Assembly (NCBI GenBank): GCA_024408105.1
Contig: JAKSVG010000001.1
Location: 50,854 to 114,853, forward strand
DNA: 64,000 nucleotides
Source: Bacilli bacterium
GTDB taxonomy: Bacteria; Bacillota_I; Bacilli_A; RFN20; CAG-826
Reading direction: 5' to 3'
Shown: positions 3,639 to 49,502 of the stretch, piece by piece
Layout: each line of letters starts with the position of its first letter
Position numbering within the stretch: the first letter of the stretch is position 1
The notes under the pieces: generated by a model
What the model was told of the DNA's origin: nothing
Database searches by the model: none
The model's input: only the letters and a program-made list of their open reading frames with translations
Position numbers and translations under genes: made by a program

Positions 3639-3652
3639 TATTGTTAGACAAA

Positions 3653-3681
3653 AGTTATCTTTTAATAGGTAACTTTTTTTA
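3653..3681 (+). terminator. intrinsic terminator after relA
   Basis: 7-bp stem (AGTTATC/GGTAACT with one G-U pair), 8-nt loop, then a T7 run. Confidence 0.6.
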
Positions 3682-3762
3682 TTTTTAATTTCAAAATGCT
3701 ATGTATTGAATTTATACATAATAAAATGTATAATACAAAAGATTAGAAACGGAGATTTTCGT

Positions 3763-15642: not shown

Positions 15643-16836
15643 ATGAAATTTAAAAGAATATTTGTTATTGTAGCAGATTCAGCTGGAATTGGAGAAATGC
15701 CTGATGCTGCCAAATTTGGTGACGCAGGAACAAATACATTTGTTCATACTTCAGAAAAGTGTGGCGGATTAAATGTACCAGTCATGAATTCAATGGGTTT
15801 AGGCGAATTAGCTCCTGTCCTTGGAACAAGCAAAGTTTCTCATCCAAATTCATATTGCATGAGACTAAGAGAAGCAAGTGCTGGAAAAGACACTATGACT
15901 GGACACTGGGAAATGATGGGAATTTACACAACCAAACCATTCCAGACATTTACCGATACAGGTTTTCCTCAAAGTTTAATCGAAGAATTAGAAAAACGCA
16001 CTGGTCACAAAATAATTGGCAACAAAGCCGCAAGTGGAACAGAAATTCTTAAAGAATTAGGCGAAGAACAAAAACGAGATAATTCTTTAATTGTATATAC
16101 ATCCGCTGATAGCGTTCTCCAAATTGCTGCTCATGAAGAAACTACTGGTGTAAAAGAGTTATATAGATGCTGTGATATAGCCCGCGAACTATGTATGAAA
16201 CCCGAATATTTTGTCGGAAGAATCATTGCAAGACCTTTTATTGGTGACAGCGCAGAAACATTTAAACGTACTCCAAATAGACATGATATAGCTGTCAGCC
16301 CAACTGGTACGACTGTTATGAATATTTTGCAAGATAACCATTTTATGGTTAGTTGCGTTGGAAAAATAGGAGACATTTTCAACCAGGTCGGAGTTGTCAA
16401 AACCCAAAAGACTGTGAGCAATATGGATGGAATGGATAAAACAATTGACGAAGCTAAAAATCACGATTTTGAAGGATTGTGCTATGTCAATCTAGTTGAA
16501 TTTGATTCCGAATATGGTCATAGAAGAAACGCACTAGGATATGGAAAAGCATTAGAAGAATTCGATGTTCGCATAGGCGAACTCATAAAAGTTCTACACG
16601 ACGATGACTTACTAATGATTACAGCAGATCACGGAAACGATCCAACCCATACCGGGACAGATCATACAAGGGAAAAAGTTCCTTTACTTGTTTATAGTAA
16701 ATCATTCAAAAACGGAAGATATCTTGATGAAAGATCTACATTCGCAGATATTGGTGGTACAATTCTCAAAAACTTTGGGTTAAAGAAATCAGACAATGAG
16801 ATTGGAGAACCAATCTATGAGTTGTTCGAAGATTAG
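15643..16836 (+). CDS. deoB: phosphopentomutase
   Basis: Motifs RIFVIVADSAGIG, GKDTMTGHWEMMG and TADHGNDPTHTGTDHTRE. GGGAG SD. Confidence 0.95.
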   Translation: MKFKRIFVIVADSAGIGEMPDAAKFGDAGTNTFVHTSEKCGGLNVPVMNSMGLGELAPVLGTSKVSHPNSYCMRLREASAGKDTMTGHWEMMGIYTTKPFQTFTDTGFPQSLIEELEKRTGHKIIGNKAASGTEILKELGEEQKRDNSLIVYTSADSVLQIAAHEETTGVKELYRCCDIARELCMKPEYFVGRIIARPFIGDSAETFKRTPNRHDIAVSPTGTTVMNILQDNHFMVSCVGKIGDIFNQVGVVKTQKTVSNMDGMDKTIDEAKNHDFEGLCYVNLVEFDSEYGHRRNALGYGKALEEFDVRIGELIKVLHDDDLLMITADHGNDPTHTGTDHTREKVPLLVYSKSFKNGRYLDERSTFADIGGTILKNFGLKKSDNEIGEPIYELFED

Positions 16837-17791
16837 AAAAATTTCAATTTTGCCTTTATTGACAATAGCCTTAATTAGTTGTTCTAAAACTAAGCAAAGT
16901 CTCATGTGCGTGTGTCCTAAGGGAGCACCTGCACTTAGTTTTTATAACGTAAATTTCGAAGAAATTGAATTCAGATCAGAACCAACACTAGTTTTATCAG
17001 AATTACAAAAAAATGATTTTGATATGGTTGTTTTCGACTCGATTAATGGATTAAAAAGCTGCGTGAAAAACAAAGCTAACTATGCTTTAGCAAAGCTAAT
17101 TACAGGTGGCAATTTCTATTTAGTAGGAATTGATGTAAAGCCATTAAGCGATGGAAGTTATCCTCTCCCAAAGAGTGATGACATAGTTGTTTCGTTTGGG
17201 CAAAACCTAATACCAGATTTAGTTTATTCAAAACTATGTTCTGACTTTTGGCACATAGAAAATAATGCACATTACGTTAATAGCGTAAACGATGCCTTGG
17301 CCGTATTGAAAAGTGGAAGATATAGTGGTGGAAATGCCAATTACGTATTTATTGCTGAACCAGCATTAACAGCAGCATTAAACGACAAAACATGCGAAAC
17401 ATACGGAAAAGTTAACATAGTTAAAAATATACGTTCAGAATGGAAAATTTATTCTGGCCAAGATGGGTTAGCTCAAGCTGGTATATTCGTGAACAAATCT
17501 TCATATGAAAAGAGAAAAGATGAATTGCATAAATATATTGTTAATGTAGAAAATGCTATTGAAACCGCTATAAACGATCCTTTAAGTGTAAAACACGATA
17601 TGGATTCAAAGCTGAGTCTTAATGAACAAATTGAAAAATACGGGTTTAATTCAAACACAGTTCTTCAAGTCCAAAGTGATAACCGCAATGGATTCGGATT
17701 AGTGGGGAAAAATGAATCAATTGACGTTAATAAATTTTTGGAATACTTAGGACAAAGTCCTATACCAGAGGATTATTTTATTGAAGTATGA
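16817..17791 (+). CDS. lipoprotein, ABC-transporter substrate-binding protein (NMT1/TauA-like)
   Basis: Signal peptide with lipobox (ILPLLTIALISC). The size and periplasmic-binding-protein-like composition fit the call. Its start overlaps the deoB 3' end, and its stop overlaps the permease start. The family assignment is tentative. Confidence 0.6.
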   Translation: MSCSKIRKISILPLLTIALISCSKTKQSLMCVCPKGAPALSFYNVNFEEIEFRSEPTLVLSELQKNDFDMVVFDSINGLKSCVKNKANYALAKLITGGNFYLVGIDVKPLSDGSYPLPKSDDIVVSFGQNLIPDLVYSKLCSDFWHIENNAHYVNSVNDALAVLKSGRYSGGNANYVFIAEPALTAALNDKTCETYGKVNIVKNIRSEWKIYSGQDGLAQAGIFVNKSSYEKRKDELHKYIVNVENAIETAINDPLSVKHDMDSKLSLNEQIEKYGFNSNTVLQVQSDNRNGFGLVGKNESIDVNKFLEYLGQSPIPEDYFIEV

Positions 17792-18561
17792 GAAGAATCA
17801 CAAGATTTTATAAAAATAATCGTATTCTAATTTGGACAATTATCGGAACAGGAACATTGTTTTTACTTTGGTGGATAATTTCATTGCTTGTAAATTCAAC
17901 ATTGTTTCCTGGCCCACAAGTGGTTGTTCCAGAATTTGTGGCGCATTTAGGCAAAGGGGGCACATATCTTGCAATTGGAGGAACATTAATAAGGTTATTA
18001 ATCTCGATTGCTTTAGGTTTTTTCTTTGGAATACTTCTAGGTATATTTGGTGGTCTTTCAGTTGGGTTTAGAGCATTTATGAGACCGTTTATTATTGTTT
18101 TTAGAACAATTCCAACGGCAGCAGTCGTTTTCATTATAGTCGCTTTGCTAAAACCAATGTTTGCACCGACAATTATCGTATTTCTAATTGTGTTCCCAAT
18201 TCTCTATGAATCGGTTGTCAGCGGAATTACAAACGTAGATCAATCAATTGTTGACGCACTAAAAATCGATGGAACAAATGTTAGAAAGGCAGTATTCAAA
18301 ATATATTTGCCATTATCATGGAGTTATATTCTTTTAGGATTGGTATCAAGCATTGGCTTAGGAATGAAAGTTGGAATAATGAGTGAAATATTAGCTGGAA
18401 GCGATTCGGCAAATGGGCTTGGAAAGCTAATTCGTGATGCTGCGACAATTGCTGATATGAAAGGCGTTTTGTCCTATTCGTTAATCGCTATCATATTGAT
18501 TGGGTTAATTGATATAGGAATGTATTTCCTGAAGAAAAAATTAAAAAATTATGCAAGATAA
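17788..18561 (+). CDS. ABC transporter permease (nitrate/sulfonate/taurine TauC/SsuC-like family)
   Basis: 6 TM segments and an EAA-loop-like segment (VDQSIVDALKIDGTNVRKAVFKIYLP). No ATPase gene is adjacent. Followed by a terminator. Confidence 0.8.
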   Translation: MRRITRFYKNNRILIWTIIGTGTLFLLWWIISLLVNSTLFPGPQVVVPEFVAHLGKGGTYLAIGGTLIRLLISIALGFFFGILLGIFGGLSVGFRAFMRPFIIVFRTIPTAAVVFIIVALLKPMFAPTIIVFLIVFPILYESVVSGITNVDQSIVDALKIDGTNVRKAVFKIYLPLSWSYILLGLVSSIGLGMKVGIMSEILAGSDSANGLGKLIRDAATIADMKGVLSYSLIAIILIGLIDIGMYFLKKKLKNYAR

Positions 18562-38290: not shown

Positions 38291-39664
38291 CTATTTTTCA
38301 ATTTTATCTAAAAGATAGTTTCTAACATCACTTATAGGCATTCTAATTTGTTCCATAGTATCGCGGTCTCTAATTGTGACACAATTGTCTTTTTCGACAG
38401 TATCAAAATCTACTGTTATACAGTAAGGTGTGCCTATCGCATCCTGCCTTCTATATCTTTTGCCAATCGAGCCTGTTTCATCATAAATAACAGAGAAATG
38501 CTTATTAAGCATCGATAACACTTCTTTCGCTTTTTCTCCAAGCTGCTTGCTTAATGGTAATACGGCTGCTAAATATGGTGCAAGAATTGGCTTTAAATGC
38601 ATTACGACTCTTGTATCATTTTCTTTTAATGTTTCAACATCATATGCTTCGCATGCAACCATCAAAAAGATTCTCTCCACCCCCATCGAAGGCTCAATGC
38701 AATAAGGAACATACTTTTCGTTTGTTTCTGAATCTAAATATTCTAATGATTCACCACTTGCTTCCATGTGGCGTTTAAGGTCATAATCCGTTCTATCGGC
38801 TACGCCGAGAATTTCTCCCCAACCAAATGGGAACATATATTCAACATCGGTGGTTGCTTTTGAATAGAAGGCAAGTTCTTCCGGTTCGTGATCCCTGTAT
38901 CTAAGGTTTTCTTGACTAATATTTAAAGATGACAAGAAATCTAATGAAAACTTTTTCCAATAGGAAAACCACTCTAAATCAGTACCTGGTTTGCAGAAAA
39001 ATTCCATTTCCATTTGTTCAAATTCGCGTACTCTGAATATAAAGTTCCCTGGAGTGATTTCATTGCGGAAACTCTTTCCTATATTGCAAATGCCGAAAGG
39101 TATTTTTCTTCTTGATGTTCTTTGAACATTTTTGAAGTTCACAAACATTCCTTGGGCTGTTTCTGGACGTAGATATACTAAGCTTTCGGAAGCTTCGGTC
39201 ACGCCAATGTGGGTTCTAAACATTAAATTAAATTGACGAATATCAGTAAAATCTGACTTCCCACATACAGGACACGAAACTTTGTTATCTTTGATAAACT
39301 TAACCATTTCTTCATTAGTCATCCCGTTTACGTCAACGTCTGGATATGCTTTTTCAATCAAATTATCAGCGCGATGGCGTGAATGGCAATTTTTACAATC
39401 AATTAAAGGATCAGCAAATGTGGCAACGTGTCCAGTTGCTTTCCAAACATTAGGATTCATCAATATTGCTGCATCAATTCCAACATTAGTTGGAGATTCA
39501 CGAACGAATTTCTCCCACCAATATTTTTTAATATTATTTTTTAGCTCAACACCTAGCGGACCAAAATCCCATGAATTGGAAAGACCACCATAGATTTCAG
39601 AATCTTGATAAACAAATCCGCTAGTAATTAAGTGTGTAACAATTTCATCAAATTTCTTTTTCAT
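38291..39664 (-). CDS. glyQS: glycyl-tRNA synthetase (homodimeric GlyQS type)
   Basis: Motifs WDFGPLG, LRPETAQG, FRNEITPGNFIFRVREFEQMEMEFF and PSMGVERI. Confidence 0.95.
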   Translation of the reverse strand: MKKKFDEIVTHLITSGFVYQDSEIYGGLSNSWDFGPLGVELKNNIKKYWWEKFVRESPTNVGIDAAILMNPNVWKATGHVATFADPLIDCKNCHSRHRADNLIEKAYPDVDVNGMTNEEMVKFIKDNKVSCPVCGKSDFTDIRQFNLMFRTHIGVTEASESLVYLRPETAQGMFVNFKNVQRTSRRKIPFGICNIGKSFRNEITPGNFIFRVREFEQMEMEFFCKPGTDLEWFSYWKKFSLDFLSSLNISQENLRYRDHEPEELAFYSKATTDVEYMFPFGWGEILGVADRTDYDLKRHMEASGESLEYLDSETNEKYVPYCIEPSMGVERIFLMVACEAYDVETLKENDTRVVMHLKPILAPYLAAVLPLSKQLGEKAKEVLSMLNKHFSVIYDETGSIGKRYRRQDAIGTPYCITVDFDTVEKDNCVTIRDRDTMEQIRMPISDVRNYLLDKIEK

Positions 39665-39744: not shown

Positions 39745-40464
39745 TTATATCTTATTCAAAAGATTTATAGATTTTATATCTATTTGGGCATTATCATAAG
39801 CAAACTTCTTAAGATCATTAATTAATTCTAAGCATTCTTGTTTTGTAAATATAACTTTATCAAAGTTATTGATATCTACTTTAAATATGTAACGAATTAT
39901 TTTAAGTTTTCTACTGTCACATTGAACGTGTTTTGAAGGCATATAGCAGTCTTTGCATATAAATCCTCCATCTAGATATGAAACGGCTGTAATTTGGCTT
40001 GTTTTGCCACAAATAACGCAACTATCAACGTTAAGTTGGTATCCAGTTTCTTTTAATACAACTGCAAAATAAATTAAACCAATGGTAAACGGATCAAATC
40101 CTTCATCCAATAATTCTAAGGCTTTGCTAAACCAATTATAAACTTTAGCGGCGTCATCATTTTGGATAAATTTATTTGTTATTTCTCCAATCATATCCGC
40201 AATGGCTAGTGTGGAAATATTATCTTTGATATGAGGGAAACTAGTATGTAATTCTCCACTTCTTAAAGAAAAACCTTCTTTACCTTTAGATAATTGAAAT
40301 TTTGCCTTAGAAAAAAGATTTACAGTTGGTGCGTTTTTGCTTTCAAATTTTAATACGCCTCTAGCCAAAAACGAAATGATTCTATCATTGGTTAAGACAT
40401 TTACCACTGCATCATTTTCACGAAAAGGGGTGGCTCTAATCACAATGCCTTCAATCTCGAACAT
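39745..40464 (-). CDS. recO: DNA repair protein RecO
   Basis: N-terminal OB fold (GIVIRATPFRENDAVV) and zinc-finger cysteines (CVICG...CKDC). Conserved era-recO order. Confidence 0.88.
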   Translation of the reverse strand: MFEIEGIVIRATPFRENDAVVNVLTNDRIISFLARGVLKFESKNAPTVNLFSKAKFQLSKGKEGFSLRSGELHTSFPHIKDNISTLAIADMIGEITNKFIQNDDAAKVYNWFSKALELLDEGFDPFTIGLIYFAVVLKETGYQLNVDSCVICGKTSQITAVSYLDGGFICKDCYMPSKHVQCDSRKLKIIRYIFKVDINNFDKVIFTKQECLELINDLKKFAYDNAQIDIKSINLLNKI

Positions 40465-41336
40465 TATTTATAGCCTAATTCCTTCAGTATTTTTGGATTA
40501 TTAATCCAATCTTCTTTTACAGAAACAAATAGGTCGAGGAAAATGTGCTTATTAAAGTACTCTTCTAATGTTTTTCTAGACTTGATGCCAATAGCTTTAA
40601 TTTTCTTCCCGCCTTTTCCAATTACAATTCCTTTATGCGATTCACGGTCAACAATTATTGTTGCCTTGATATAAACTGCATCAGACTTGTGCTGTATTTC
40701 ATCAACTCTAACAGCCAGTTCATGGGGAACTTCTTCCTTTAAAAATTTAAGTAATTTTTCACGTATTATTTCAGAAACATAAAACGCTGCATCCTTATCA
40801 GTGATAGTTTCTTCATCATAGTACCGCGGCCCTTCTTTCATTAATGGCTTAATTTTTTCAAGTAATTCCCTAATGCCAAAATTTTCTATCGCACTCATCT
40901 CAAGGATTTCTGCATTTGGGTATTTATTTTTATAAATTTCTTTAATAGCCACAACTTCAGGAAGCCTAAGCAAATCAATTTTATTGATAATTACAAATAA
41001 AGGGCAATTTTCCGGAATGTTCTTTGCTATATATTCATCACCAGCATCAAACTTCTTAGATCCGTCAACAACTAAGACGATTGCCTCAACTCCTTTTGTG
41101 GAATCAATCGCACCTTGATTCATGATTCTTCCAAGGGAATGGCGTGCCTTATGAATTCCAGGTGTATCAACAAAAACAATTTGATAATCGCCATCATCAA
41201 ATATTCCTCTAATTGCGTTACGTGTCGTTTGTGCTTTTTCGGTAACTATTGATATATCTCGCTCTAAAAGAGCGTTAATCAAAGTCGACTTTCCCGCATT
41301 AGGCCTTCCAATAATAGCTACAAAGCCAGAACGCAT
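40464..41336 (-). CDS. era: GTPase Era
   Basis: Motifs GRPNAGKSTL, DTPG and NKID, plus a C-terminal KH domain (VIGKGGKKIKAIG). Confidence 0.96.
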   Translation of the reverse strand: MRSGFVAIIGRPNAGKSTLINALLERDISIVTEKAQTTRNAIRGIFDDGDYQIVFVDTPGIHKARHSLGRIMNQGAIDSTKGVEAIVLVVDGSKKFDAGDEYIAKNIPENCPLFVIINKIDLLRLPEVVAIKEIYKNKYPNAEILEMSAIENFGIRELLEKIKPLMKEGPRYYDEETITDKDAAFYVSEIIREKLLKFLKEEVPHELAVRVDEIQHKSDAVYIKATIIVDRESHKGIVIGKGGKKIKAIGIKSRKTLEEYFNKHIFLDLFVSVKEDWINNPKILKELGYK

Positions 41337-42181
41337 TATTTCAAATCATCCTCAGAAAATGCAAACGGAAGTAGTTCATCAATAGATGTTTCTTGAACTA
41401 AACCTTTTAGGTTTGCCATAAATATAGGGGCGCTCTTTGGCATAAGTTCTGACATAACTTGTCTACATGCGCCGCATGGAGCACAAGGACCTTCGGTATC
41501 CGCAGCTAATGCTAAGGCAGCAATATCGCCCTTTTTAACGCCATGCATATATGCATTATAGAGAGCGTTTCTTTCAGCACACATGCAAAGTGGGTAAGCA
41601 GAGTTTTCAATATTAGCTCCTAAAAAGACTTTGCCATCGGTTGTCAAAACTGCTGCACCAACTTTGAATTTTGAATAAGGAGAGTAAGATAATTCTCTCG
41701 CCTCAATCGCTTTAGTAACTAATTCATTCTTTTCCATTTTGTGTCCTCCGAGGATTTCATCCTGCAATTGAAACATAACGATTTCATCGTTCTTTTTCAT
41801 ATGATCATAGCCTAATAAATGAAGCATTCCATGAACAAAAAGAAATGACATTTCTCTGTTAACTGAGTGACCGAATTCTTTAGCTTGTTCTTCGGCTTTT
41901 TCATATGAAATAACAATTTGCCCTAAAGATAAAGGAATATCTGAAGAAATTGTTTCATTTTCATCATCAAAAAATGCAAAACTGATTACATCAGTCGGCT
42001 TATCATTTTTTCGATAATCGCGATTAATTTCTTGGATAGATTTATTATCTACAATAATCACATCAACGATATAATTTTCTTTAATACCTAAATGATTAAA
42101 GACCTTCTCAGTTAAATTTGAGAACTGATTTTCAAATGCATCATAAGATGCAGGTCCGTGATTGATAAAATCTAATTCCAT
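41336..42181 (-). CDS. ybeY: in-frame fusion: endoribonuclease YbeY + cytidine deaminase Cdd
   Basis: Residues 1-147 carry the YbeY motif HGMLHLLGYDH. Residues 148-281 carry the Cdd zinc motifs CAERNAL and PCGACRQ. No stop codon separates them. An internal GGAGGA SD lies 6 nt before ATG 41737. Confidence 0.9.
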   Translation of the reverse strand: MELDFINHGPASYDAFENQFSNLTEKVFNHLGIKENYIVDVIIVDNKSIQEINRDYRKNDKPTDVISFAFFDDENETISSDIPLSLGQIVISYEKAEEQAKEFGHSVNREMSFLFVHGMLHLLGYDHMKKNDEIVMFQLQDEILGGHKMEKNELVTKAIEARELSYSPYSKFKVGAAVLTTDGKVFLGANIENSAYPLCMCAERNALYNAYMHGVKKGDIAALALAADTEGPCAPCGACRQVMSELMPKSAPIFMANLKGLVQETSIDELLPFAFSEDDLK

Positions 42182-42223: not shown

Positions 42224-43396
42224 CTATAAATTGCATTTATGAATGAATTTAGCCTTGTCTTTTTTGTAATCAGAAATTTCCCAATCCGCATTAAGAAAAA
42301 CGTCAAAGTTCATCAGAAGAACATAATATAATCCAAAGTGAAAAATCACATAATTTACACTGATTTCTTTAGCAGATAACATAAGCAAAAAGCTAATTAT
42401 AATAACTATAAATGTATTAATACATTTTCTTAAAGCAATTTTTAAAGCAAAAGAAGATGATTTATTACATACTGATTTAATATCTTCAACTAAGTTTGAT
42501 CTTGCAGAACTGCAAAGTGCTTGTTCATTGATAGATATATCATCTTTAATTTTGCAGTCACCTTTATGAAACATAATTTTTTCAATGACACACACTAATA
42601 AAAGAATTAAGAAAGCTATACAATTTTTTGAATCATTTAAAATTAAGCTAACAACTATAATTATCGTGAGAATTAAACTAGAAAATAATTTACGAGAATA
42701 AGAAAAATATTTTGACTTAAAACTTGCATAAAATTTATAGTCATTTTTTGATATATTATTGCTTGAGAAAAATAATGGGATATATTTATTATCAAAGAAT
42801 TTAATTTCTTTGATTAAATACCATTTTTCTACTAATTCGAAAATCATAAATATAGTCAATAAAATAAATGGAGTAAGAATAAAAGAATCACCTTTTATGA
42901 AATATAAACCCGTTACCAAAGAGGCTACTCCTAGTATCGAAAGTGAAAGAGAAATAATTTGGGAAATTGGGGATAGGATATTTTTGTTTTTTATTTTTAG
43001 TTCCTTTCTTTTATATTCTGCTATTTCAAGAGTTTCTCCACTCCAACTATTTAAAAATTTATCAATTTTAATTTTGATAGAACCAAGTGATGGATCATTG
43101 ACTAGGATGAATTTTGTTGTGATCTTTTTCACTAATACTAAATGATTAGAATTAATAAGCACTAAAGCAGGAATGTTTATCTTTGATAAATCTTTATCAA
43201 TATATTTAAACGCACAAAGTTTAACGTTATATCTTGAAGCGATTTCGATTAAATTCGAAAAAGAATATGGACGGTCTTTAAAAGGGGAATTAAGACGCAG
43301 AAAAGATTTATTCTTGTTTATTGTGGCTAAAAGCATTTTTAATGACGCAAAGCCACAATCATGTTCGCTCCCTTGATAGCAAAAATATTTTGACAC
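42224..43396 (-). CDS. C39 cysteine peptidase domain fused to a 6-TM ABC-exporter-like membrane domain, with no ATPase domain
   Basis: The N-terminal 130 aa have the full C39 catalytic set in the usual spacing: Q..(5)..C in YQGSEHDCGFASLKML, His in SNHLVLV, Asp in VNDPSLG. Six hydrophobic helices follow, arranged with two long cytoplasmic loops. The ORF ends 42 nt before ybeY. GGAGGTGA SD 8 nt before GTG 43396. Confidence 0.7.
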   Translation of the reverse strand: MSKYFCYQGSEHDCGFASLKMLLATINKNKSFLRLNSPFKDRPYSFSNLIEIASRYNVKLCAFKYIDKDLSKINIPALVLINSNHLVLVKKITTKFILVNDPSLGSIKIKIDKFLNSWSGETLEIAEYKRKELKIKNKNILSPISQIISLSLSILGVASLVTGLYFIKGDSFILTPFILLTIFMIFELVEKWYLIKEIKFFDNKYIPLFFSSNNISKNDYKFYASFKSKYFSYSRKLFSSLILTIIIVVSLILNDSKNCIAFLILLLVCVIEKIMFHKGDCKIKDDISINEQALCSSARSNLVEDIKSVCNKSSSFALKIALRKCINTFIVIIISFLLMLSAKEISVNYVIFHFGLYYVLLMNFDVFLNADWEISDYKKDKAKFIHKCNL

Positions 43397-43442
43397 TAGT
43401 TTCACCTCCAATATCTAGTAGTCAATTTTCAAGAAAAAATGC

Positions 43443-43471
43443 TAAAAGAAAAAGGGAAGCAAATGCTTCCC
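43443..43471 (-). terminator. intrinsic terminator after rpsU
   Basis: The minus strand has GGGAAGC-attt-GCTTCCC followed by TTTTTCTTTT. It separates rpsU from the C39-TMD gene. Confidence 0.88.
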
Positions 43472-43480
43472 AATTATTGA

Positions 43481-43497
43481 TTAGTACGTATTAGTAA
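43481..43497 (+). repeat. phased direct repeat TTAGTAC-N3-TTAGTAA
   Basis: Copies at 43481 and 43491 (10-bp period), overlapping the rpsU stop on the opposite strand. Confidence 0.45.
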
Positions 43498-43664
43498 GTT
43501 TTACGTCTTGCCATTTCGCTTTTTAGTTTACGCTTAAGTCCTTTTTTAAGGTAGAACTCTCTTTTACGTGTCTCAAGGAGAACGCCGGATTTGTTCACTT
43601 GGCGTTTAAAACGGCGAAGTGCTTCGTCTAATGTTTCGTTTTCACGAACAACTGTCTTTGGCAT
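43491..43664 (-). CDS. rpsU: 30S ribosomal protein S21
   Basis: Absent from the ORF track (57 aa). My translation is [67 protein letters not shown]. Followed by a terminator. Confidence 0.93.
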
Positions 43665-43702
43665 TTAATTCATCTCCTTCCTTACGTACAGAATAACTAA
43701 TG

Positions 43703-44347
43703 TTATTCACCTTTTACGATTTTAACACCGCAAGAGGCGCCGATGCGAGATGCACCAGCATTAATCATATCTTCAGCTTCAAAGCGATTATGGATACCAC
43801 CACTGGCCTTAACACCAAATGTAGGTCCGACTGCTTCACGCATCATAGCAACATGACGCACTGTAGCTCCGCCTTTTGAGAAGCCTGTAGATGTTTTAAC
43901 ATAGTCTGCGCCAGCACGCACACACGCTCTACAGCACTCAACGATTTCTTCGTCGGTGAGTAAACATGTTTCAAGAATTACTTTTAGTAATTTGCCACCG
44001 CATCCTTCTTTAACTAATCTAACTTCTTTTTCGATAAAATCATAATCATGCTCTTTAGCCATTGAAATGTTTAGAACCATATCAATTTCTTGAGCACCTG
44101 CTTTAACAGCTTCGCTTGCTTCAAACTTTTTAACCTCTGGAAGCGTTGCTCCTAATGGGAATCCAATAACTGTGCAAACCTTAACAATTGAGCCTGCAAG
44201 TAGTTTGCTCGCCACTGGGACAAAGCAAGGGTTGACGCACACAGATGCAAATTCATAACTACGTGCTTCTTCACACAATTTTTTAATTGCTTCTATAGAA
44301 GCATCTGGTTTTAAAAGTGTGTGATCAATCATTCTATTAATTTCCAT
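43703..44347 (-). CDS. deoC: deoxyribose-phosphate aldolase
   Basis: IDHTLLKP and the Schiff-base lysine context DYVKTSTGF, with GVKASGGI. Confidence 0.94.
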   Translation of the reverse strand: MEINRMIDHTLLKPDASIEAIKKLCEEARSYEFASVCVNPCFVPVASKLLAGSIVKVCTVIGFPLGATLPEVKKFEASEAVKAGAQEIDMVLNISMAKEHDYDFIEKEVRLVKEGCGGKLLKVILETCLLTDEEIVECCRACVRAGADYVKTSTGFSKGGATVRHVAMMREAVGPTFGVKASGGIHNRFEAEDMINAGASRIGASCGVKIVKGE

Positions 44348-44745: not shown

Positions 44746-45999
44746 CTATCGAACTTTTAATTTAACGATTTTGCCAATATATTCATCAGGCAAATCTGCT
44801 GATATCTTAAGATAATTCGATGTAAAACCAGACAATAATCCTGTTGTTTTATTTCTCTCTTCTAAAAGAACTTCTAATTCTTTGCCTCTAAATGAGTTGA
44901 AATACTTATCATAAAGAACGTTAGACAATTCAATTAGCTTACTGACTCGTTCGTTTTTAACCTTAGGGTCGACTTGCTCACTCATCTCGTAAGCTGGCGT
45001 TCCTTCTCTAGCAGAAAACGGAAAAACATGTAACTCAGCAAAATTAACTTTTTTTATAAATTCATATGTTTCGTTGAATTCTTCTTCGCTTTCGCCAGGG
45101 AATCCAACAATTACATCTGTCGTGATTGCAATATCCGGTCGCACTTCTCTAATTTTATTAACTTTGTTAACGAAGTCTTGAACATTATATTTTCTGTGCA
45201 TTCTTTTTAGCACACTTGATGATCCACTTTGCAAAGGCATGTGCAAATGGTTTGCAATGTTTGGATAGTTTTTAAGCAAATTAATAAATTTATCGTCGAT
45301 TTCACTTTCTTCAATTGAAGATATCCTTAATCTATATAAGCCAGGTATTTTCAAAATTTCTTCAACTAAATCTGAAAACGTGATTCCTTTTAAATCAATC
45401 CCATAGAACGCTGTGTGAATTCCCGTTAGCACGAATTCTTTGAATCCTTGAGAAATAAGATGCTTTATTTCATCAATAATTTCATCTTTGTCTCTTGATC
45501 GAACATTGCCTCTTGTGTATGGTATTGTACAATATGTACAAAAATTATTACATCCATCTTCAACTTTTATGTATGCTCGAGTAGATTCTGGCAATGTGAA
45601 AACACCAAAAGATTCATATTTTAAATGGCGAACATCGTCATCTATCATTTTTATTGGCTTCTTAGTTTTTAAAAATGTCTGAATCAACTCTAAAATCTTA
45701 TTTCTGTTTGAAGTTCCGACAACAATATCAGCGTTGCATTCTTTTATTACATAATCTGCATTCTTCTGAGAATAGCACCCCATCACAACCACAATAGAAT
45801 TGATATTGTTTCTTTTTTCTCGTCTTATTATCTGCCGAGATTTTTGATCTGCAACAGATGTAACAGAACATGTATTGATAATAGTTACATCTGGTGAAAT
45901 TTGAGATTCCTCATAACCATTTAAAAAAAGCATCTGGCGAATAGCGTTGCTTTCATATGAATTAACTTTGCAACCAAGTGATATTAATTTAAATTTCAT
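44746..45999 (-). CDS. mtaB: radical-SAM methylthiotransferase, MtaB (YqeV)-like
   Basis: MTTase N-terminal domain (NTCSVT), radical SAM CNNFCTYC and a C-terminal TRAM-like region. It lies in the rsmE neighbourhood, as yqeV does in Bacillus. The MtaB-versus-MiaB call is based on context and size. Confidence 0.8.
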   Translation of the reverse strand: MKFKLISLGCKVNSYESNAIRQMLFLNGYEESQISPDVTIINTCSVTSVADQKSRQIIRREKRNNINSIVVVMGCYSQKNADYVIKECNADIVVGTSNRNKILELIQTFLKTKKPIKMIDDDVRHLKYESFGVFTLPESTRAYIKVEDGCNNFCTYCTIPYTRGNVRSRDKDEIIDEIKHLISQGFKEFVLTGIHTAFYGIDLKGITFSDLVEEILKIPGLYRLRISSIEESEIDDKFINLLKNYPNIANHLHMPLQSGSSSVLKRMHRKYNVQDFVNKVNKIREVRPDIAITTDVIVGFPGESEEEFNETYEFIKKVNFAELHVFPFSAREGTPAYEMSEQVDPKVKNERVSKLIELSNVLYDKYFNSFRGKELEVLLEERNKTTGLLSGFTSNYLKISADLPDEYIGKIVKLKVR

Positions 46000-46781
46000 T
46001 TTGCTTTTCTTTCTAATGAATGTTTAATCTTAAAATCTCTATGTTTAATTTTATAAATTAATTTTTCTGATACTAATTTATTTTGAATTAAAGCTTGCAG
46101 CATCCCCTCTTTATCATCATCAAGATAATTTTCAATAACCGGTCTAATTCGTTCAATAATACGACTGGTAGGTGGATGTTTTAAATACTTATCAAATAAA
46201 GGAATTTTTGCATCTAAACGTCCTTGATTATTTATTATATAAATAGTCTTAAAATCGAAATGATAGACCGCCATAACTTTTTCTGTTTTTTTAACAACAA
46301 CAAGTTTCGTAAACAAAGAATCATATAAATCAAAGTTATAAAGTTCAAATAAATCTATACACGAAGTGTTAAAAGAAGAAATCAATTTAGCATAAGGCGC
46401 TTTTAAAAGTTTTCCATGTTGATTCGAATAAAATCCATTGATTGCTCGTGAAAAAATTGGGACATATATTTTTGTTTCGTTTTCTTTTACATATGGAGCA
46501 TTTTTCATTTGCTCACTAATATATTTTTCAACCTCATTTGTTTTCATATTGCTTTCTTTGAAAGCATATAAAATGGCTTTTTCCAATTTTGATTTGTTTT
46601 GCAACGCTTGAATTATTATGTTTGCTCGAATAACGTCGAATTCATCACGAGCATCTAAAAGCATTTTGTACATTTCAATTCCGGAAAATAAATGTCTATT
46701 TGTTAAATAAAAGTAATAGTCTTCAGTTTTTCTAAAGTCTATGCCTTTTTGATATTTATCTAATAATTCGTATAACTGCAT
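45996..46781 (-). CDS. hypothetical protein (261 aa, soluble, no recognisable motif)
   Basis: The ORF has coding-like composition. Its stop forms an ATGA overlap with the mtaB start, and its start lies 1 nt after the rsmE stop. Confidence 0.6.
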   Translation of the reverse strand: MQLYELLDKYQKGIDFRKTEDYYFYLTNRHLFSGIEMYKMLLDARDEFDVIRANIIIQALQNKSKLEKAILYAFKESNMKTNEVEKYISEQMKNAPYVKENETKIYVPIFSRAINGFYSNQHGKLLKAPYAKLISSFNTSCIDLFELYNFDLYDSLFTKLVVVKKTEKVMAVYHFDFKTIYIINNQGRLDAKIPLFDKYLKHPPTSRIIERIRPVIENYLDDDKEGMLQALIQNKLVSEKLIYKIKHRDFKIKHSLERKAK

Positions 46782-46782
46782 A

Positions 46783-47502
46783 TTATTTTTTCTCTAACAG
46801 GCAGGATATAACACTCAATGCATATATAGAGGCAGTTTCTGCTCTAAGAATGCGCCTTCCTAATGAAACAGGTACAAACCCTTCGCACTTAGCAATGTTA
46901 ACTTCGTATTCTGCAAAGCCACCTTCAGGCCCTACCATAACCGCAATTGTTTGATCTTCTTTAGCTTTATTTATTTCATCAATAAATGTTTTGGTTATTC
47001 CTGCGTTTAATTCATAAGGAATTATTTTTATATCAGCTTTTATTCGTGAAAGTTCATTAATGCTAATGACTTTTGAGACATCAGGCACAGCTAAACGGCA
47101 TGATTGTTCAGCGGCCTCCTTAGCAATTCTTTTATATCTATCAAGTCTATTGCTGTTGTCACGCCTATTAACTCTAATTATCGTTCGTTCACTTTCTAAA
47201 AAAACGATTTCATTTACGCCTAATTCTGTCGCTTTTTGTACAACAAAATCCATTTTCTCGCCTTTTAATAAAGCTGCAATGAGAATTATCTTGCATTTTA
47301 ATTCTCTTTTTTCGTTAATTTTTCTTTTAACTTTTATCGCTAATGGTTTTATTGATTTAATCTCGCATAAAAAAACTTGATGATTATTTACAACTTCAAT
47401 TTCATCATTGCAGCGAGCTCGCATGACTTTGGTTAGATGAAAAATATCATCATCGGAAAGCAATACATCTTTATCAACGATTGAAGCAAAATATCTTTGC
47501 AT
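46783..47502 (-). CDS. rsmE: 16S rRNA (uracil1498-N3)-methyltransferase RsmE
   Basis: MQRYF start, a PUA-like N-terminus, and GPEGGF plus LGRRILRAETA at the C-terminus. Confidence 0.9.
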   Translation of the reverse strand: MQRYFASIVDKDVLLSDDDIFHLTKVMRARCNDEIEVVNNHQVFLCEIKSIKPLAIKVKRKINEKRELKCKIILIAALLKGEKMDFVVQKATELGVNEIVFLESERTIIRVNRRDNSNRLDRYKRIAKEAAEQSCRLAVPDVSKVISINELSRIKADIKIIPYELNAGITKTFIDEINKAKEDQTIAVMVGPEGGFAEYEVNIAKCEGFVPVSLGRRILRAETASIYALSVISCLLEKK

Positions 47503-47942
47503 TATTTTAAAAATTCTCCATCTCCGTCAACTAAATCGTGGCGAATAAAAATCATTATGCCAGAAATAATCATCATAATTTCTAGAACAAAATACGGAAT
47601 TAAAAACGCTAAAGCGTTTGGGATTGCATTTGTAAAGAATAAAATAGAACCTAATGTAGCGATAAACACTACTGTTATTGCTATAAGAATAAATCCGATT
47701 TTTTTACGATTTAAATAAAACATATGTGCACCAAAAACGCCTAAGAAAATAGCTAATATGCCGGCAATTTTTCTACTTTTATGTTTTATTTCTTCAACAT
47801 TACATTCAATTGGATCAAATGCTTTAGTAAAATCTTGAGTCACATTATCGTTGCCTTCAAGAGGCTTTCTTGTGCCACAAAATGGACAAATGTCTTTGTC
47901 TAATCTAGATATTTCTTCACCACAGTTTTTACATTTAGCCAT
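47502..47942 (-). CDS. zinc-ribbon plus TM2-domain membrane protein
   Basis: N-terminal CKNCG..CPFCG, then GILAIFLGVFGAHMFYLNRKKIGFILI, which is typical of the TM2 domain. Confidence 0.7.
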   Translation of the reverse strand: MAKCKNCGEEISRLDKDICPFCGTRKPLEGNDNVTQDFTKAFDPIECNVEEIKHKSRKIAGILAIFLGVFGAHMFYLNRKKIGFILIAITVVFIATLGSILFFTNAIPNALAFLIPYFVLEIMMIISGIMIFIRHDLVDGDGEFLK

Positions 47943-47969: not shown

Positions 47970-49502
47970 TTAAAAATTAATTTCGTAATCTACTAGACCA
48001 TCATAAAAATCTTTCTCATGCGAAACAATAATTACGCATCCGCTAAATCTTTCAATAGCGGAAAATAATGCCTCCTTTGCTTTTTGATCCAAATGATTTG
48101 TAGGTTCGTCCAAGATAAGGAAATTTGACTTTATTAAAGTCATTGCAGCGAATCGTGCCTTAGTAACTTCGCCTCCAGATAATTCCTTCATTTTTCTAAT
48201 AGCTAATTCTTTTCTTAGACCGCAAGAACCAAGAATTGTTCTAATTTGAGTATTAGTTAATTCAGGATGAAGGTTATGAATATAATCAAATGGACTTTGA
48301 TTTAAATCAATTGATTTCTCTTGATCATAGTAATTAATTACTGTGCCTTCTAACCACTTAAAAGATCCATCGATTTTTTCTATATGGCCAAGTATCGTCT
48401 TTAAGAATGTTGTTTTCCCAACGCCATTCTTACCTAATATCGCTATCTTTTGTCCTTTTTTTAACGAAAACGATATTGAAGGAAGCAAAGCTTTGTTGTA
48501 TCCAATTACTAGTTCATCAATGGAAAGAACATCTTTGCCAACATCTTTTGTGAAAGGAAAATTAAAATGAACAATGCCTTCTTCTTTTCCTGGAGCTTCC
48601 ATTCTATCTAAATGTTCTAGTTGTTTTCTATGGGATTTAGCGGCTCTAGATGAAGTTGCTCGAACAATATGTTTTTCGATAAATTCTTCCTCTTTTTTTA
48701 TATATCTTTGTTGAGCGTTATATCGTTTTTCATACATTTCTTTATCAAGAGCGTGTTGCTCTAAAAAGTGGTCGAATGATCCTCTATATCTAACAATTGT
48801 TTTATTTTCTAAAGAAAATACAACATTTGCAATTTTTCTTAGAAATTCTTGGTCATGTGAAACAACTAAAAAAGCCTTTGGATAACTATTTAAATAAGAT
48901 GCTAACCAATCAACTTGATTTGCATCTAAAAAGTTAGTTGGCTCATCCATAATCAGTACATCTTTTTGTTCGAGAAGCATTCTCACTAAATACACTTTTT
49001 CTCTTTGGCCAGATGAGAGTTTTGATAAAGGCAAATTAAGTCTATCTTCTTGGATTCCTAAACCAGCAATTAATTTAGCTATATTTTCTTTCAAAGAATA
49101 GAAACCATCTACAGTAAGTTCATCTTGCAATTTAGATGCTTTTTCTAGCAATACTTCGTAATTTTCAAAATCTAATGCAGACTGCTCATACAATTTTTCC
49201 ATTCGTTTTTCTTTTTTAAATAAAAACGAAAATACTTCGTGCAGATAGTCAATTGTTATTAAATCCTGATTAACTTTAAGATTTTGATCCAAATAAGAAT
49301 ATGTTACATGTGGAGTCCATACAACTTTTCCCTTATCAGGAGATAGTTTCTTTGTAAGCAAATTTAAAATAGTTGTCTTGCCTGAGCCATTTACCCCAAC
49401 AAGAACGCAGTGCTCACCATCATTAATTTTCATATTAATAGAACGGTAAAGTTCTTTGTCAGCATAATTAAATTCAATATCCTGTAGTTCAATTAAAGCC
49501 AT
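47970..49502 (-). CDS. ABC-F family ATPase (two ABC domains, no TM domain)
   Basis: Walker A GVNGSGKTT and GKNGVGKTT, signatures LSSGQ and LSGGE, and an inter-domain linker. Confidence 0.9.
   Translation of the reverse strand: MALIELQDIEFNYADKELYRSINMKINDGEHCVLVGVNGSGKTTILNLLTKKLSPDKGKVVWTPHVTYSYLDQNLKVNQDLITIDYLHEVFSFLFKKEKRMEKLYEQSALDFENYEVLLEKASKLQDELTVDGFYSLKENIAKLIAGLGIQEDRLNLPLSKLSSGQREKVYLVRMLLEQKDVLIMDEPTNFLDANQVDWLASYLNSYPKAFLVVSHDQEFLRKIANVVFSLENKTIVRYRGSFDHFLEQHALDKEMYEKRYNAQQRYIKKEEEFIEKHIVRATSSRAAKSHRKQLEHLDRMEAPGKEEGIVHFNFPFTKDVGKDVLSIDELVIGYNKALLPSISFSLKKGQKIAILGKNGVGKTTFLKTILGHIEKIDGSFKWLEGTVINYYDQEKSIDLNQSPFDYIHNLHPELTNTQIRTILGSCGLRKELAIRKMKELSGGEVTKARFAAMTLIKSNFLILDEPTNHLDQKAKEALFSAIERFSGCVIIVSHEKDFYDGLVDYEINF

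Follow-up and report, generated by a model that had tools for sequence, protein, structure and literature searches.

Introduction

ATP-driven alternating access is the defining property of ABC exporters, and in those of type IV the coupling helices within the TM2–TM3 and TM4–TM5 loops dock the nucleotide-binding domain (NBD). The peptidase-containing ABC transporters (PCATs; the PCAT/AMS systems PCAT1, ComA, LagD, LcnC and CvaB) end in an NBD bearing Walker A and B motifs and an LSGGQ signature. To our knowledge, SbmA/BacA is the sole documented branch that has dropped the ATPase yet kept the fold. These transporters (SLiPTs) have the ABC-exporter fold, have lost the NBDs and coupling helices and are proton-driven, and LmrA with its NBD deleted can also exploit a proton gradient (PMC8442886, PMC13316013).

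Described here is a 390-aa protein of a Bacilli bacterium in which a C39 peptidase domain is joined to a six-helix membrane domain, predicted to be of the type IV exporter fold, with no NBD following. The gene lies in a 64,000-nucleotide stretch of contig JAKSVG010000001.1, referred to throughout as the window. A full-text search of the literature returned no description of an NBD-less family combining C39 and membrane domains.

Results

Gene, start site and peptidase domain

The gene runs on the minus strand from a GTG codon (43394-43396) to a stop codon at 42224-42226, and its features are collected in Table 1. The GTG start is favoured over a TTG at 43411 because the homologues start at the same point, with N-termini reading MSKYF or MKYF, in agreement with the start and the dedicated Shine-Dalgarno sequence proposed in the first-pass annotation. 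Between rpsU and the gene, where a terminator had also been proposed, lies the hairpin GGGAAGCATTTGCTTCCC (43471-43454, minus strand) followed by TTTTTCTTTT. An equivalent hairpin and T-run, with differing stem sequences, is found in 28 of 32 related loci. The element would make the gene the opening cistron of the following transcription unit, or the gene may be expressed by read-through. The protein is 100% identical to cluster P0001, named at NCBI 'cysteine peptidase family C39 domain-containing protein [Bacilli bacterium]', and the database labels for the family are just 'C39 domain-containing protein' or 'hypothetical protein'.

Table 1. Features of the locus, in window coordinates
Feature	Position	Strand	Basis or remark
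Gene of the 390-aa protein (C39 peptidase and exporter-type membrane domain)	42224..43396	minus	ORF list, sequence
Shine-Dalgarno sequence GGAGGTG	43403..43409	minus	sequence; 6 nt before GTG start
Cytoplasmic C39 (double-glycine-type) cysteine peptidase domain, residues 1-128 (predicted)	43013..43396	minus	
C39 catalytic codons	Gln8 43373-43375, Cys14 43355-43357, His85 43142-43144, Asp101 43094-43096	minus	
Basic linker KRKELKIKNKNILS, residues 129-142	42971..43012	minus	sequence, model
Six-helix membrane domain, predicted type IV ABC-exporter fold, residues 143-388	42233..42970	minus	
Glu187 (candidate functional residue), in most hydrophobic stretch of TM2	42836..42838	minus	Glu in 76% of family; aligned PCAT column variable
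TM2–TM3 loop tip, residues 214/215	42752..42757	minus	12 PCAT residues 'LPMNFFGTREVG' (C. botulinum PCAT, L042) without counterpart; hhalign
TM4–TM5 loop tip, residues 298/299	42500..42505	minus	19 PCAT residues 'VESLNGVETIKAFNAEGEV' without counterpart; hhalign
Intrinsic-terminator-like hairpin and T-run after rpsU	43444..43471	minus	sequence
rpsU (ribosomal protein S21), upstream neighbour	43491..43664	minus	Pfam PF01165, E 1.6e-18
Fused ybeY-cdd ORF (281 aa)	41336..42181	minus	Pfam YbeY E 2.5e-45 and cytidine deaminase E 2e-17 in one ORF
era	40464-41336		after ybeY-cdd; synteny
recO	39745-40464		after era; synteny

Residues 4-127 match the Pfam family Peptidase_C39 (PF03412) with an E value of 2.6e-20 and 73 bits against a cut-off of 22. 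The complete C39 signature reported earlier is present as described, with Gln8 six residues ahead of Cys14 in YQGSEHDCGFASLKML, His85 in SNHLVLV and Asp101 in VNDPSLG. An alignment of 140 family representatives, inspected for substitution of these residues, retained all four in 139-140 sequences, with Cys14 invariant. Sequence conservation thus supports a catalytically intact C39 domain, and the basic linker that follows it is consistent with a cytoplasmic location in both sequence and model.

The membrane domain

The AlphaFold 2 (AF2) model of the protein contains six membrane-domain helices (residues 143-165, 174-209, 217-254, 258-296, 302-342 and 347-388), connected on the outside by short loops of 8, 3 and 4 residues. 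The 19-residue windows of highest hydropathy in TM1 to TM6 (147-165, 177-195, 236-254, 259-277, 324-342 and 350-368) were taken as putative membrane cores. The hydropathy maximum of each helix lies near its outer end, so that TM2 to TM6 are expected to reach 14-22 residues into the cytoplasm.

Comparison of the full-length family profile with 11 annotated PCATs using hhalign gave a Prob of 99.7% (P 2.9e-27), with an alignment that stops at PCAT residue 462, the Walker A motif being located at residue 518. The membrane domain alone aligned to the PCATs over 246 collinear columns (Prob 86.5%, P 4.6e-6), and reversed and block-shuffled membrane-domain controls gave a Prob of at most 1.5%. Pfam returned no ABC_membrane match for the 390-aa protein, nor was this family among the 25 listed in a scan of 120 family members, and the 25 NCBIfam families listed for 31 membrane-domain-only sequences included no ABC-exporter family. 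A search of PDB sequences with the membrane-domain profile gave nothing significant, the best real match being ABCB6 at an E value of 1.8. The kinship with ABC exporters is therefore missed by single-sequence HMM methods and is detected only by profile–profile comparison and structure. Of the HMM searches proposed in the first-pass annotation, that for Peptidase_C39 gave a match and that for ABC_membrane did not, the relation to PCATs emerging instead from hhalign and the predicted structure, both of which agree with the six-TM domain of ABC-exporter type that had been proposed. AlphaFold was trained on PCAT1. Together, the profile–profile comparison and the AlphaFold model support a membrane domain of the type IV ABC-exporter kind, and specifically one related to PCATs.

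Residues E187, N254, N258, E291, K324 and F352 of the membrane domain are conserved in the family and unconserved in the aligned PCAT columns, with N254 and N258 positioned at the outer TM3–TM4 turn. The conserved acidic residues are E187 (76%), D202 and E291 (97-98% for the latter two), and Glu187 may be considered a candidate proton- or cargo-binding residue. D202 and K227, which are the best-conserved residues of the domain, are found in its cytoplasmic extensions beside the peptidase and have counterparts in PCATs (Asp and Arg, respectively); being common to both groups, they are ancestral rather than part of a new proton path. Pairwise identity was 22.5% in the putative membrane cores and 18.1% in the cytoplasmic extensions. 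The family-specific residues and the slightly greater conservation of the cores indicate that the membrane domain is under a constraint of its own.

Absence of the nucleotide-binding domain and its docking segments

The protein ends two residues past helix 6 without a linker, 42 nt separate it from the start of ybeY at 42181, and Pfam ABC_tran has no match within its 390 residues, bearing out the earlier observation that neither an NBD nor a remnant of one is present. Deletions in the cytoplasmic loops were measured from the hhalign residue pairing of the family with the 11 PCATs (-M first), and a PCAT segment without counterpart was found at the tip of both the TM2–TM3 and the TM4–TM5 loop (Table 1). 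In the model, these tips consist only of coils of seven (210-216) and five residues (297-301), and loop lengths are constant across the family, the TM2–TM3 loop segment measuring 40-41 residues in 126 of its 140 representatives. On the established architecture of type IV exporters, the absent segments of 12 and 19 residues are taken to be the coupling helices, and deletion of both makes the use of a borrowed ATPase unlikely.

The first-pass annotation had suggested that the protein borrows an NBD encoded elsewhere. In such a split exporter, an independently encoded nucleotide-binding protein would dock in two copies and drive a normal PCAT cycle, as the PCAT-like fold and domain order would allow. 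This arrangement is disfavoured and considered improbable, given the deleted docking segments, the lack of a helix in either loop of the model, a chain that stops about two residues beyond TM6 and lacks a linker, and the purely housekeeping neighbours seen when 41 related loci were compared with the gene set of the window. A scan of ORFs of more than 150 aa for Walker A and ABC-signature motifs revealed no transporter ATPase gene in the 64-kb window. The one ORF with both motifs (47970-49502) encodes a soluble two-cassette protein of the ABC-F type, and was rejected as a partner because it is soluble, lies 4.6 kb away and is absent from the region in three related loci (L001, L003 and L005). 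Furthermore, in SbmA the loss of the coupling helices is taken to exclude orphan NBDs (PMC8442886).

More doubtful still is a heterodimer in which the protein serves as the accessory or regulatory half, its partner being a separately encoded full-length PCAT or ABC half-transporter. Heterodimers are common among type IV exporters and the fold would be compatible with one, but by the established ABC mechanism a single NBD cannot form an ATP sandwich, and the family is conserved as one gene within a housekeeping operon, with no transporter gene beside it.

Family and genomic context

At least 330 clusters (50% identity) are related to the protein at E < 1e-30, and the best 150 of these range from 377 to 419 aa save for a few shorter entries. 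The hosts are uncultured gut and rumen Bacilli known from metagenome-assembled genomes (MAGs), carriers of the gene including GCA_024695235.1 and a 930-kb scaffold (ERZ28653736 scaffold_2), and the matches listed for a 120-sequence profile search were metagenome or MAG proteins only. When used as a query, L039 (labelled Coprobacillus sp. MAG), which diverges most from the rest of the family, matched only itself and one other protein. A plasmid collection held no relative of the membrane domain and a phage collection no relative of the whole protein.

The gene is directly upstream of ybeY-cdd-era in all 37 related loci with readable downstream DNA, usually behind an rpsU terminator, and the same position is held on 40 related contig loci. 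Across these 37 loci, the ybeY-cdd-era-recO unit thus consistently begins with this gene. Synteny with the ybeY unit persists down to about 24% protein identity, which argues that the gene is ancestral to a deep lineage. Where the first-pass annotation had described an insertion interrupting the locus, the gene proved to be a fixed resident in every related genome examined, and the proposed survey of synteny and distribution delineated a broad family of NBD-less homologues.

The same recurrence bears on whether the gene might be a truncated pseudogene, or the product of a faulty assembly that dropped a downstream NBD. The missing NBD is the only point in its favour. A length of about 390 aa is repeated in hundreds of clusters with near-invariant catalytic residues, the junction between the gene and ybeY is the same on 37 related contig loci from different studies, and the 42-nt gap leaves no space for a remnant. 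The assembly error raised as a concern at the outset is refuted by these relatives, and the pseudogene reading is given almost no credence. The family is large, conserved and uncharacterised, and reflects neither a truncation nor a recent insertion.

Strict and relaxed regular-expression searches of all ORFs of 30-400 aa found no credible double-glycine leader in the 64-kb window. The strict match (43700-43879, plus strand) was rejected as antisense within deoC, and the relaxed matches were rejected as transmembrane segments. These scans and the neighbour comparison concur with the earlier statement that no cargo, immunity or accessory gene is nearby. The neighbours in the 41 related loci that were matched by the gene set of the window are all housekeeping genes, and in that comparison no other kind of gene was seen beside the family gene. 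The Prp/L27 protease is encoded in a ribosomal operon. An analogous role in ribosomal-protein processing was set aside, with S21 being of normal length (57 aa) and the enzyme having a complete membrane exporter domain.

Discussion

From sequence and model, the family is best explained as a vertically inherited PCAT derivative that would have kept the C39 and six-helix domains and lost the NBD together with both coupling-helix segments. It probably functions independently of ATP. The chance is put at about even that this derivative has given up ATPase use, cleaves the leader from a cargo encoded elsewhere and may move that cargo by a proton gradient or without energy input. By analogy with PCAT1 and SbmA, the protein would form a homodimer in the membrane. 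The C39 domain, whose catalytic residues are conserved, would sit against the cytoplasmic face of the membrane domain, where it would bind and cleave an N-terminal leader, presumably of the double-glycine type, from a cargo encoded elsewhere in the genome. The matured cargo could then pass through the chamber of the membrane domain across or into the membrane, powered either by the proton gradient, as in SbmA/BacA, or by the gradient of the cargo alone. Candidates for coupling or cargo contact are Glu187 in the hydrophobic stretch of TM2, Asn254, Asn258, Glu291 and Lys324. The first position in the ybeY-cdd-era-recO unit suggests that the gene is expressed constitutively, at the level of a housekeeping gene, and not as part of a bacteriocin island.

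The energy-independent membrane protease proposed in the first-pass annotation is judged somewhat doubtful. The protein would then be a membrane-anchored processing protease only, with the exporter-type domain as a platform that positions and activates C39 and holds the substrate, and the product would stay in the cytoplasm or membrane or exit by another route. The absence of an energy-coupling module is in keeping with this, as is the location of the best-conserved residues, D202 and K227, in cytoplasmic extensions near the peptidase. The peptidase activity of PCAT1 and NukT is strongly enhanced by association with the membrane domain (PMC6363468), and the peptidase domain of PCAT1 stabilizes the inward-facing state (PMC11491471). 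However, a simple anchor or platform would require neither all six helices at constant length, as seen in over 300 clusters that share about 20% identity, nor the family-specific polar residues E187, in a putative core, and N254 and N258, at the outer turn, far from the peptidase. A third reading, an ATP-free transporter similar to SbmA/BacA, a precedent that the first-pass annotation did not take up, is preferred. Specifically, it is tentatively proposed that the family comprises secondary-active (proton-coupled) or passive 'peptidase-containing exporters', with transport, dimerization and proton coupling all suggested by analogy.

If an ATP-free transporter is correct, the family would represent a second, independent ATP-free type IV ABC exporter after SbmA/BacA and the first to keep a processing protease, showing that evolution has discarded the NBD more than once. 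As a natural 'NBD-less PCAT', it would allow study of how peptidase, chamber and cargo cooperate without ATP. It would also give a whole uncultured gut and rumen lineage of Bacilli a housekeeping pathway, expressed together with ybeY and era, by which a leader-bearing protein is matured and exported. The fixed place of the gene at the start of the ybeY-era operon, seen in hundreds of clusters from MAGs of the gut and rumen, makes a core task likely, and a major secreted or surface protein of these Bacilli might be the cargo. Bacteriocin-mining pipelines keyed on C39 could mistake the family for bacteriocin exporters.

Comparison with known systems

The C39-like domain (CLD) ABC transporters such as HlyB lack the catalytic Cys, whereas Cys14 is invariant here (140/140). 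HlyB additionally carries an NBD and works with HlyD and TolC. The stand-alone or excised double-glycine peptidases LahT150, FapD and FilB share the C39 catalytic domain. Among single domains the strongest match was to LahT150 (6mpz; E 3.6e-17), and the NCBIfam matches to FapD and FilB were weak (29 bits against a cut-off of 330, and 20 against 475, respectively). These enzymes are soluble or differently anchored and have no exporter-type six-helix domain. AgrB (peptidase C75) of staphylococcal quorum sensing is a multi-TM integral-membrane cysteine peptidase that processes a peptide precursor without an ATPase, removing a C-terminal tail and forming a thiolactone, and is encoded beside its own substrate. 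The likeness to AgrB would be one of functional analogy only; its fold and family are unrelated.

With the PCATs the protein has in common a C39 domain bearing the catalytic Cys, His and Asp and the oxyanion Gln, and a homologous six-helix domain, predicted to be of type IV. It differs in lacking the NBD and both coupling-helix segments, in outside loops that are 14 and 6 residues shorter, and in having no adjacent cargo, immunity or HlyD-type accessory gene. The plasmid PCATs compared mostly adjoin bacteriocin or HlyD-family and other accessory genes; the PCAT setting is a mobile bacteriocin locus, whereas here it is a core housekeeping operon.

Like SbmA/BacA, the protein has an ABC-exporter-like membrane domain without an NBD or coupling helices, although at 6% identity the sequence relationship is undetectable. 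Pfam SbmA_BacA had no match in the 390-aa protein and was missing from the 25 families listed in the scan of 120 members. The extra N-terminal TM0 of SLiPTs is absent, the N-terminus being the C39 domain followed by six helices only, and no glutamate ladder like the conserved one lining the SLiPT cavity is evident. The hosts are Gram-positive Bacilli rather than Proteobacteria, and the protein bears a protease domain and appears to descend from the PCAT branch rather than that of YddA. Finally, SbmA imports its substrates, whereas export would be expected of the 390-aa protein.

Gene structure and conserved genomic setting

The C39-TMD gene, whose product joins a C39 peptidase to a six-helix membrane domain (TMD) without an ATPase, possesses its own Shine-Dalgarno sequence and lies behind the rpsU terminator, with a 42-nt gap to ybeY, all as described in the first-pass annotation. 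Homologues of the protein begin at the equivalent residue. Beyond the ybeY-cytidine deaminase (cdd) ORF lie era, recO, the glycyl-tRNA synthetase gene and dnaG (Pfam labels taken from syntenic loci).

Table. Coordinates of the C39-TMD gene, its signals and neighbours, and the loop deletions in its product relative to peptidase-containing ABC transporters (PCATs)
Feature	Position	Strand	Details	Evidence
C39-TMD gene	42224-43396	-	product 390 aa	ORF list and sequence
GTG start of C39-TMD gene	43394-43396	-		sequence
Shine-Dalgarno GGAGGTG	43403-43409	-	ahead of GTG start	sequence
rpsU	43491-43664	-	upstream neighbour	Pfam S21, E 1.6e-18
Terminator-like hairpin and T-run	43471-43444	-	between rpsU and C39-TMD gene	sequence
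ybeY-cytidine deaminase fusion	41336-42181	-	single ORF, 42 nt downstream of C39-TMD gene	Pfam
TM2-TM3 loop deletion vs PCATs	between residues 214 and 215		12 residues, LPMNFFGTREVG in Clostridium botulinum PCAT	hhalign
TM4-TM5 loop deletion vs PCATs	between residues 298 and 299		19 residues, VESLNGVETIKAFNAEGEV in Clostridium botulinum PCAT	hhalign

The gene had been read as an insertion interrupting the rpsU...ybeY-cdd-era-recO arrangement, a view that was overturned by comparison of related loci. Three long contigs with homologues at 33-42% identity share the order rpmF-deoC-rpsU-gene-ybeY-cdd-era-recO-glyS-dnaG-sigA. Scanning a single genome for each GTDB species gave 34 loci, every one of them in a MAG of an uncultured Bacilli-type organism, from rumen, gut or elsewhere (taxonomy by MAG record titles), and ybeY-cdd-era follow the gene within a few tens of bases in 33 of them, the exception being L023, where the contig ends at the gene. 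Directly upstream is rpsU in most loci, with a hairpin and T-run of differing stem sequence between the two in 28/32. The junction with ybeY is kept despite a differing upstream side in loci L020 (2.6-kb insert), L035, L036, L039 (yqfC-yqfD) and L040 (dnaJ, ~24% identity). Because the ybeY junction and the rpsU terminator recur across loci, the ybeY-era unit begins with the C39-TMD gene as first cistron in a deep lineage, and the gene is not a recent insertion. The rpsU-ybeY interval is variable among Firmicutes, here being filled by the C39-TMD gene, since Bacillus subtilis also carries several genes between rpsU and ybeY, phoH and pgpH/yqfF among them. At 25.7% G+C, against 33.4% for the window, the C39-TMD gene is AT-rich and, given the conserved synteny, this more likely reflects an Ile/Phe/Lys/Asn-rich membrane-protein composition than recent transfer.

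Two of the variant loci have further features. The block between rpsU and the C39-TMD gene of L020, a sheep-rumen MAG, lies on the opposite strand (3472-5743) and by eye resembles a partner-switching module, which would comprise a 519-aa multi-pass membrane phosphatase of PP2C/SpoIIE-like type together with 143-aa anti-sigma-kinase-like and 103-aa STAS-like proteins. L039 (4790-7107, MAG labelled Coprobacillus sp.) encodes a very divergent 379-aa member with Gln/Cys/His/Asp retained by eye, flanked by ORFs that look yqfC/yqfD-like (sporulation) upstream and by ybeY downstream, a slot that holds phoH-pgpH in Bacillus subtilis; a protein search with this member found only one other relative.

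Other observations were made within the window. The ybeY-cdd fusion ORF encodes 281 aa and is also called in L003 and L004, while ybeY and cdd are separate in L001 and L005 (149-151 and 133 aa); frame arithmetic on tblastn coordinates suggests that the fusion is confined to the subclade nearest the window (L003, L004, L006, L007, L009 and L010). A 261-aa ORF (45996-46781, -) lies between rsmE and an mtaB-like radical-SAM gene; an ORF of equal length, with no Pfam family on record, occupies this place in L003, and none is there in L001 or L005. The small protein at 47502-47942 (-) combines a zinc-ribbon-like CxxC...CxxC motif at its N-terminus with a TM2 domain at its C-terminus (labelled from Pfam on the syntenic L001, L003 and L005 genes), and its gene is kept between dnaJ and rsmE across related loci. 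Directly upstream of the ABC-importer permease gene 17788-18561 (BPD_transp_1), a 331-aa ORF (16796-17791, +) without a Pfam match at E <= 1e-5 may be a divergent substrate-binding protein or second permease. An Rfam gathering-threshold scan of the 64-kb window returned no RNA family; tRNAs were absent, as were T-box leaders ahead of hisS (3706-5064), aspS (5064-6788) or the glycyl-tRNA synthetase gene (38291-39664). Such a lack of tRNAs and T-box leaders is unusual for Firmicutes.

Peptidase domain and extent of the family

Pfam Peptidase_C39 matched residues 4-127 (E 2.6e-20), and the solved double-glycine protease LahT150 (6mpz) matched the same domain at E 6e-9, or E 3.6e-17 with the family profile. 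The signature reported from the sequence is complete and canonically spaced, comprising Gln8, Cys14, His85 and Asp101. When 140 representatives of clusters at 50% identity were aligned, Cys14 was kept in 140/140 and Gln8, His85 and Asp101 each in 139/140, so the catalytic residues, whose substitution had been considered, are near-invariant. With these residues present and kept, the peptidase domain is of the active type, unlike the cysteine-less C39-like domain of HlyB.

Among 5.8 billion proteins searched there were 43 relatives, of 388-403 aa save one 354-aa entry, all annotated with C39 alone. The survey of NBD-less homologues (NBD, nucleotide-binding domain) proposed earlier took in the 34 loci above and a profile search of 1.84 billion cluster representatives, which returned at least 330 clusters at E < 1e-30; the best 150 measure 377-419 aa apart from a few shorter entries and align end to end, with identity to the window protein dropping as low as 20-25%. 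Against this breadth, the chance that the architecture is an artefact is negligible. NCBI names extend no further than "cysteine peptidase family C39 domain-containing protein" or "hypothetical protein", and in NCBIfam the top match over the full length was to the PCAT family of Mycoplasma Mbov_0121, at 36.6 bits vs a cut-off of 500. No relative was found in plasmid (membrane domain) or phage (whole protein) collections, nor did searches of an open-access library bring up any description of an NBD-less C39 and membrane-domain family, an absence that is not proof.

Homology of the membrane domain to PCATs

The AlphaFold2 model, built from a 26-sequence alignment, was confident (mean pLDDT 87, pTM 0.75) and contains six long helices (143-165, 174-209, 217-254, 258-296, 302-342 and 347-388). 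The most hydrophobic 19-residue stretches, taken as membrane cores, are 147-165, 177-195, 236-254, 259-277, 324-342 and 350-368; with the cores so placed, TM2-TM6 extend beyond the membrane by 14-22 residues on the cytoplasmic side, and loops of 8, 3 and 4 residues join the helices outside. With these long cytoplasmic extensions and short outside loops, the predicted structure has the outline of a type IV ABC exporter. The comparison with PCAT1 that had been proposed proved favourable, as PCAT1 (8vp5_B) ranked first in Foldseek against the PDB (E 4.7e-13, TM-score 0.68 on the query) across both peptidase and membrane domain. Exporters without C39, such as BmrA, McjD and TAP, also matched over ~300 columns.

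Because AlphaFold has seen PCAT1, sequence evidence independent of the model was sought. Of the HMM searches proposed, that for Peptidase_C39 gave a match and that for ABC_membrane gave none; when 120 family members were scanned, ABC_membrane was likewise missing from the 25 families listed. NCBIfam gave no ABC-exporter family among 25 listed for 31 membrane-domain-only sequences, and a membrane-domain-only profile found nothing significant among PDB sequences. Single-sequence HMM methods thus miss a relationship that profile-profile comparison detects. When the family membrane-domain profile was compared by hhalign with the excised membrane domains of 11 aligned, annotated PCATs from plasmids, 246 collinear columns were matched with Prob 86.5% and P 4.6e-6 (global mode, Prob 90.9% and P 1.4e-7), whereas a reversed target and ten block-shuffled targets gave Prob <= 1.5% and P >= 0.014. 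Across settings Prob was 79-91%, which is moderate yet clearly above controls. With such a separation, the membrane domain is homologous to that of PCATs, and the region is of ABC-exporter type as first proposed; the fold assignment rests on a predicted structure and a profile-profile alignment of moderate probability.

Loss of the NBD and coupling-helix segments

Full-length hhalign comparison (Prob 99.7%, P 2.9e-27) stops at PCAT residue 462, with Walker A at 518. The protein terminates two residues past helix 6, so neither an NBD nor a remnant is present, in agreement with the first-pass annotation. Two outside loops are also shorter than in PCATs, by 14 and 6 residues in the profile alignment, and the 12- and 19-residue deletions fall in the two intracellular loops, TM2-TM3 and TM4-TM5, each at the loop tip. 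It is these loops that bear the NBD-gripping coupling helices of type IV exporters (PMC8442886, PMC13316013). The model is concordant, with only coils of 7 residues (210-216) and 5 residues (297-301), and alignment and model together indicate that the coupling-helix segments are absent. Short intracellular loops are shared across the family: the cytoplasmic segment between TM2 and TM3 is 40-41 residues long in 126/140 members.

It is improbable that a separately encoded NBD drives the protein, and a heterodimer with a full transporter is more improbable still. Within the 64 kb, a pair of ABC ATPase motifs occurs only in a two-cassette protein without a membrane domain (47970-49502, -). This 510-aa protein is of ABC-F type and lies between dnaJ and the TM2-domain gene; since L001, L003 and L005 lack its gene at the equivalent position, it was inserted in a lineage-specific manner into synteny that is otherwise conserved. 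An ORF scan of the window found no credible double-glycine-leader ORF, bearing out the earlier statement that no such peptide gene lies nearby. The PCAT loci fetched for comparison mostly place bacteriocin genes or an HlyD-type or other accessory gene beside the transporter, whereas the C39-TMD gene has no such neighbourhood.

Possible mechanism and comparison with known systems

It is established that the protein has a C39 domain of active type and a six-helix domain homologous to that of PCATs, that it lacks NBD and coupling-helix segments, and that it is strongly conserved with a fixed operon position; we give about an even chance to the protein performing ATP-free processing and translocation. 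Such working is plausible because SbmA/BacA, of the same fold without NBDs and coupling helices, are proton-driven through conserved acidic residues, and LmrA with its NBD deleted can likewise use the proton gradient (PMC8442886; PMC13316013). In the membrane domain D202, K227, N254 and E291 are kept in >= 96% of the 140 representatives, and E187, N258, K324 (K or R pooled) and F352 in 74-81%. By profile alignment P176, D202 and K227 (R in PCATs) are common to both families, while E187, N254, N258, E291, K324 and F352 are family-specific. E187, which is family-specific and sits where TM2 is most hydrophobic, would be the leading candidate for a residue that takes up protons or binds cargo. The main rival, possible if doubtful, is a protease that has lost transport and retains the membrane domain as a platform for its activation; in PCAT1 and NukT, association with the TMD raises peptidase activity (PMC6363468).

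The protein would resemble PCATs in its predicted leader recognition and cleavage, but it lacks the NBD and coupling helices that define them. With the SbmA/BacA-like peptide transporters (SLiPT), which are proton-driven and have an ABC-exporter-like fold without an NBD, it shares loss of the ATPase; however, it is not a SLiPT member, as it has no sequence relationship to them and neither a TM0 domain nor an evident glutamate ladder.
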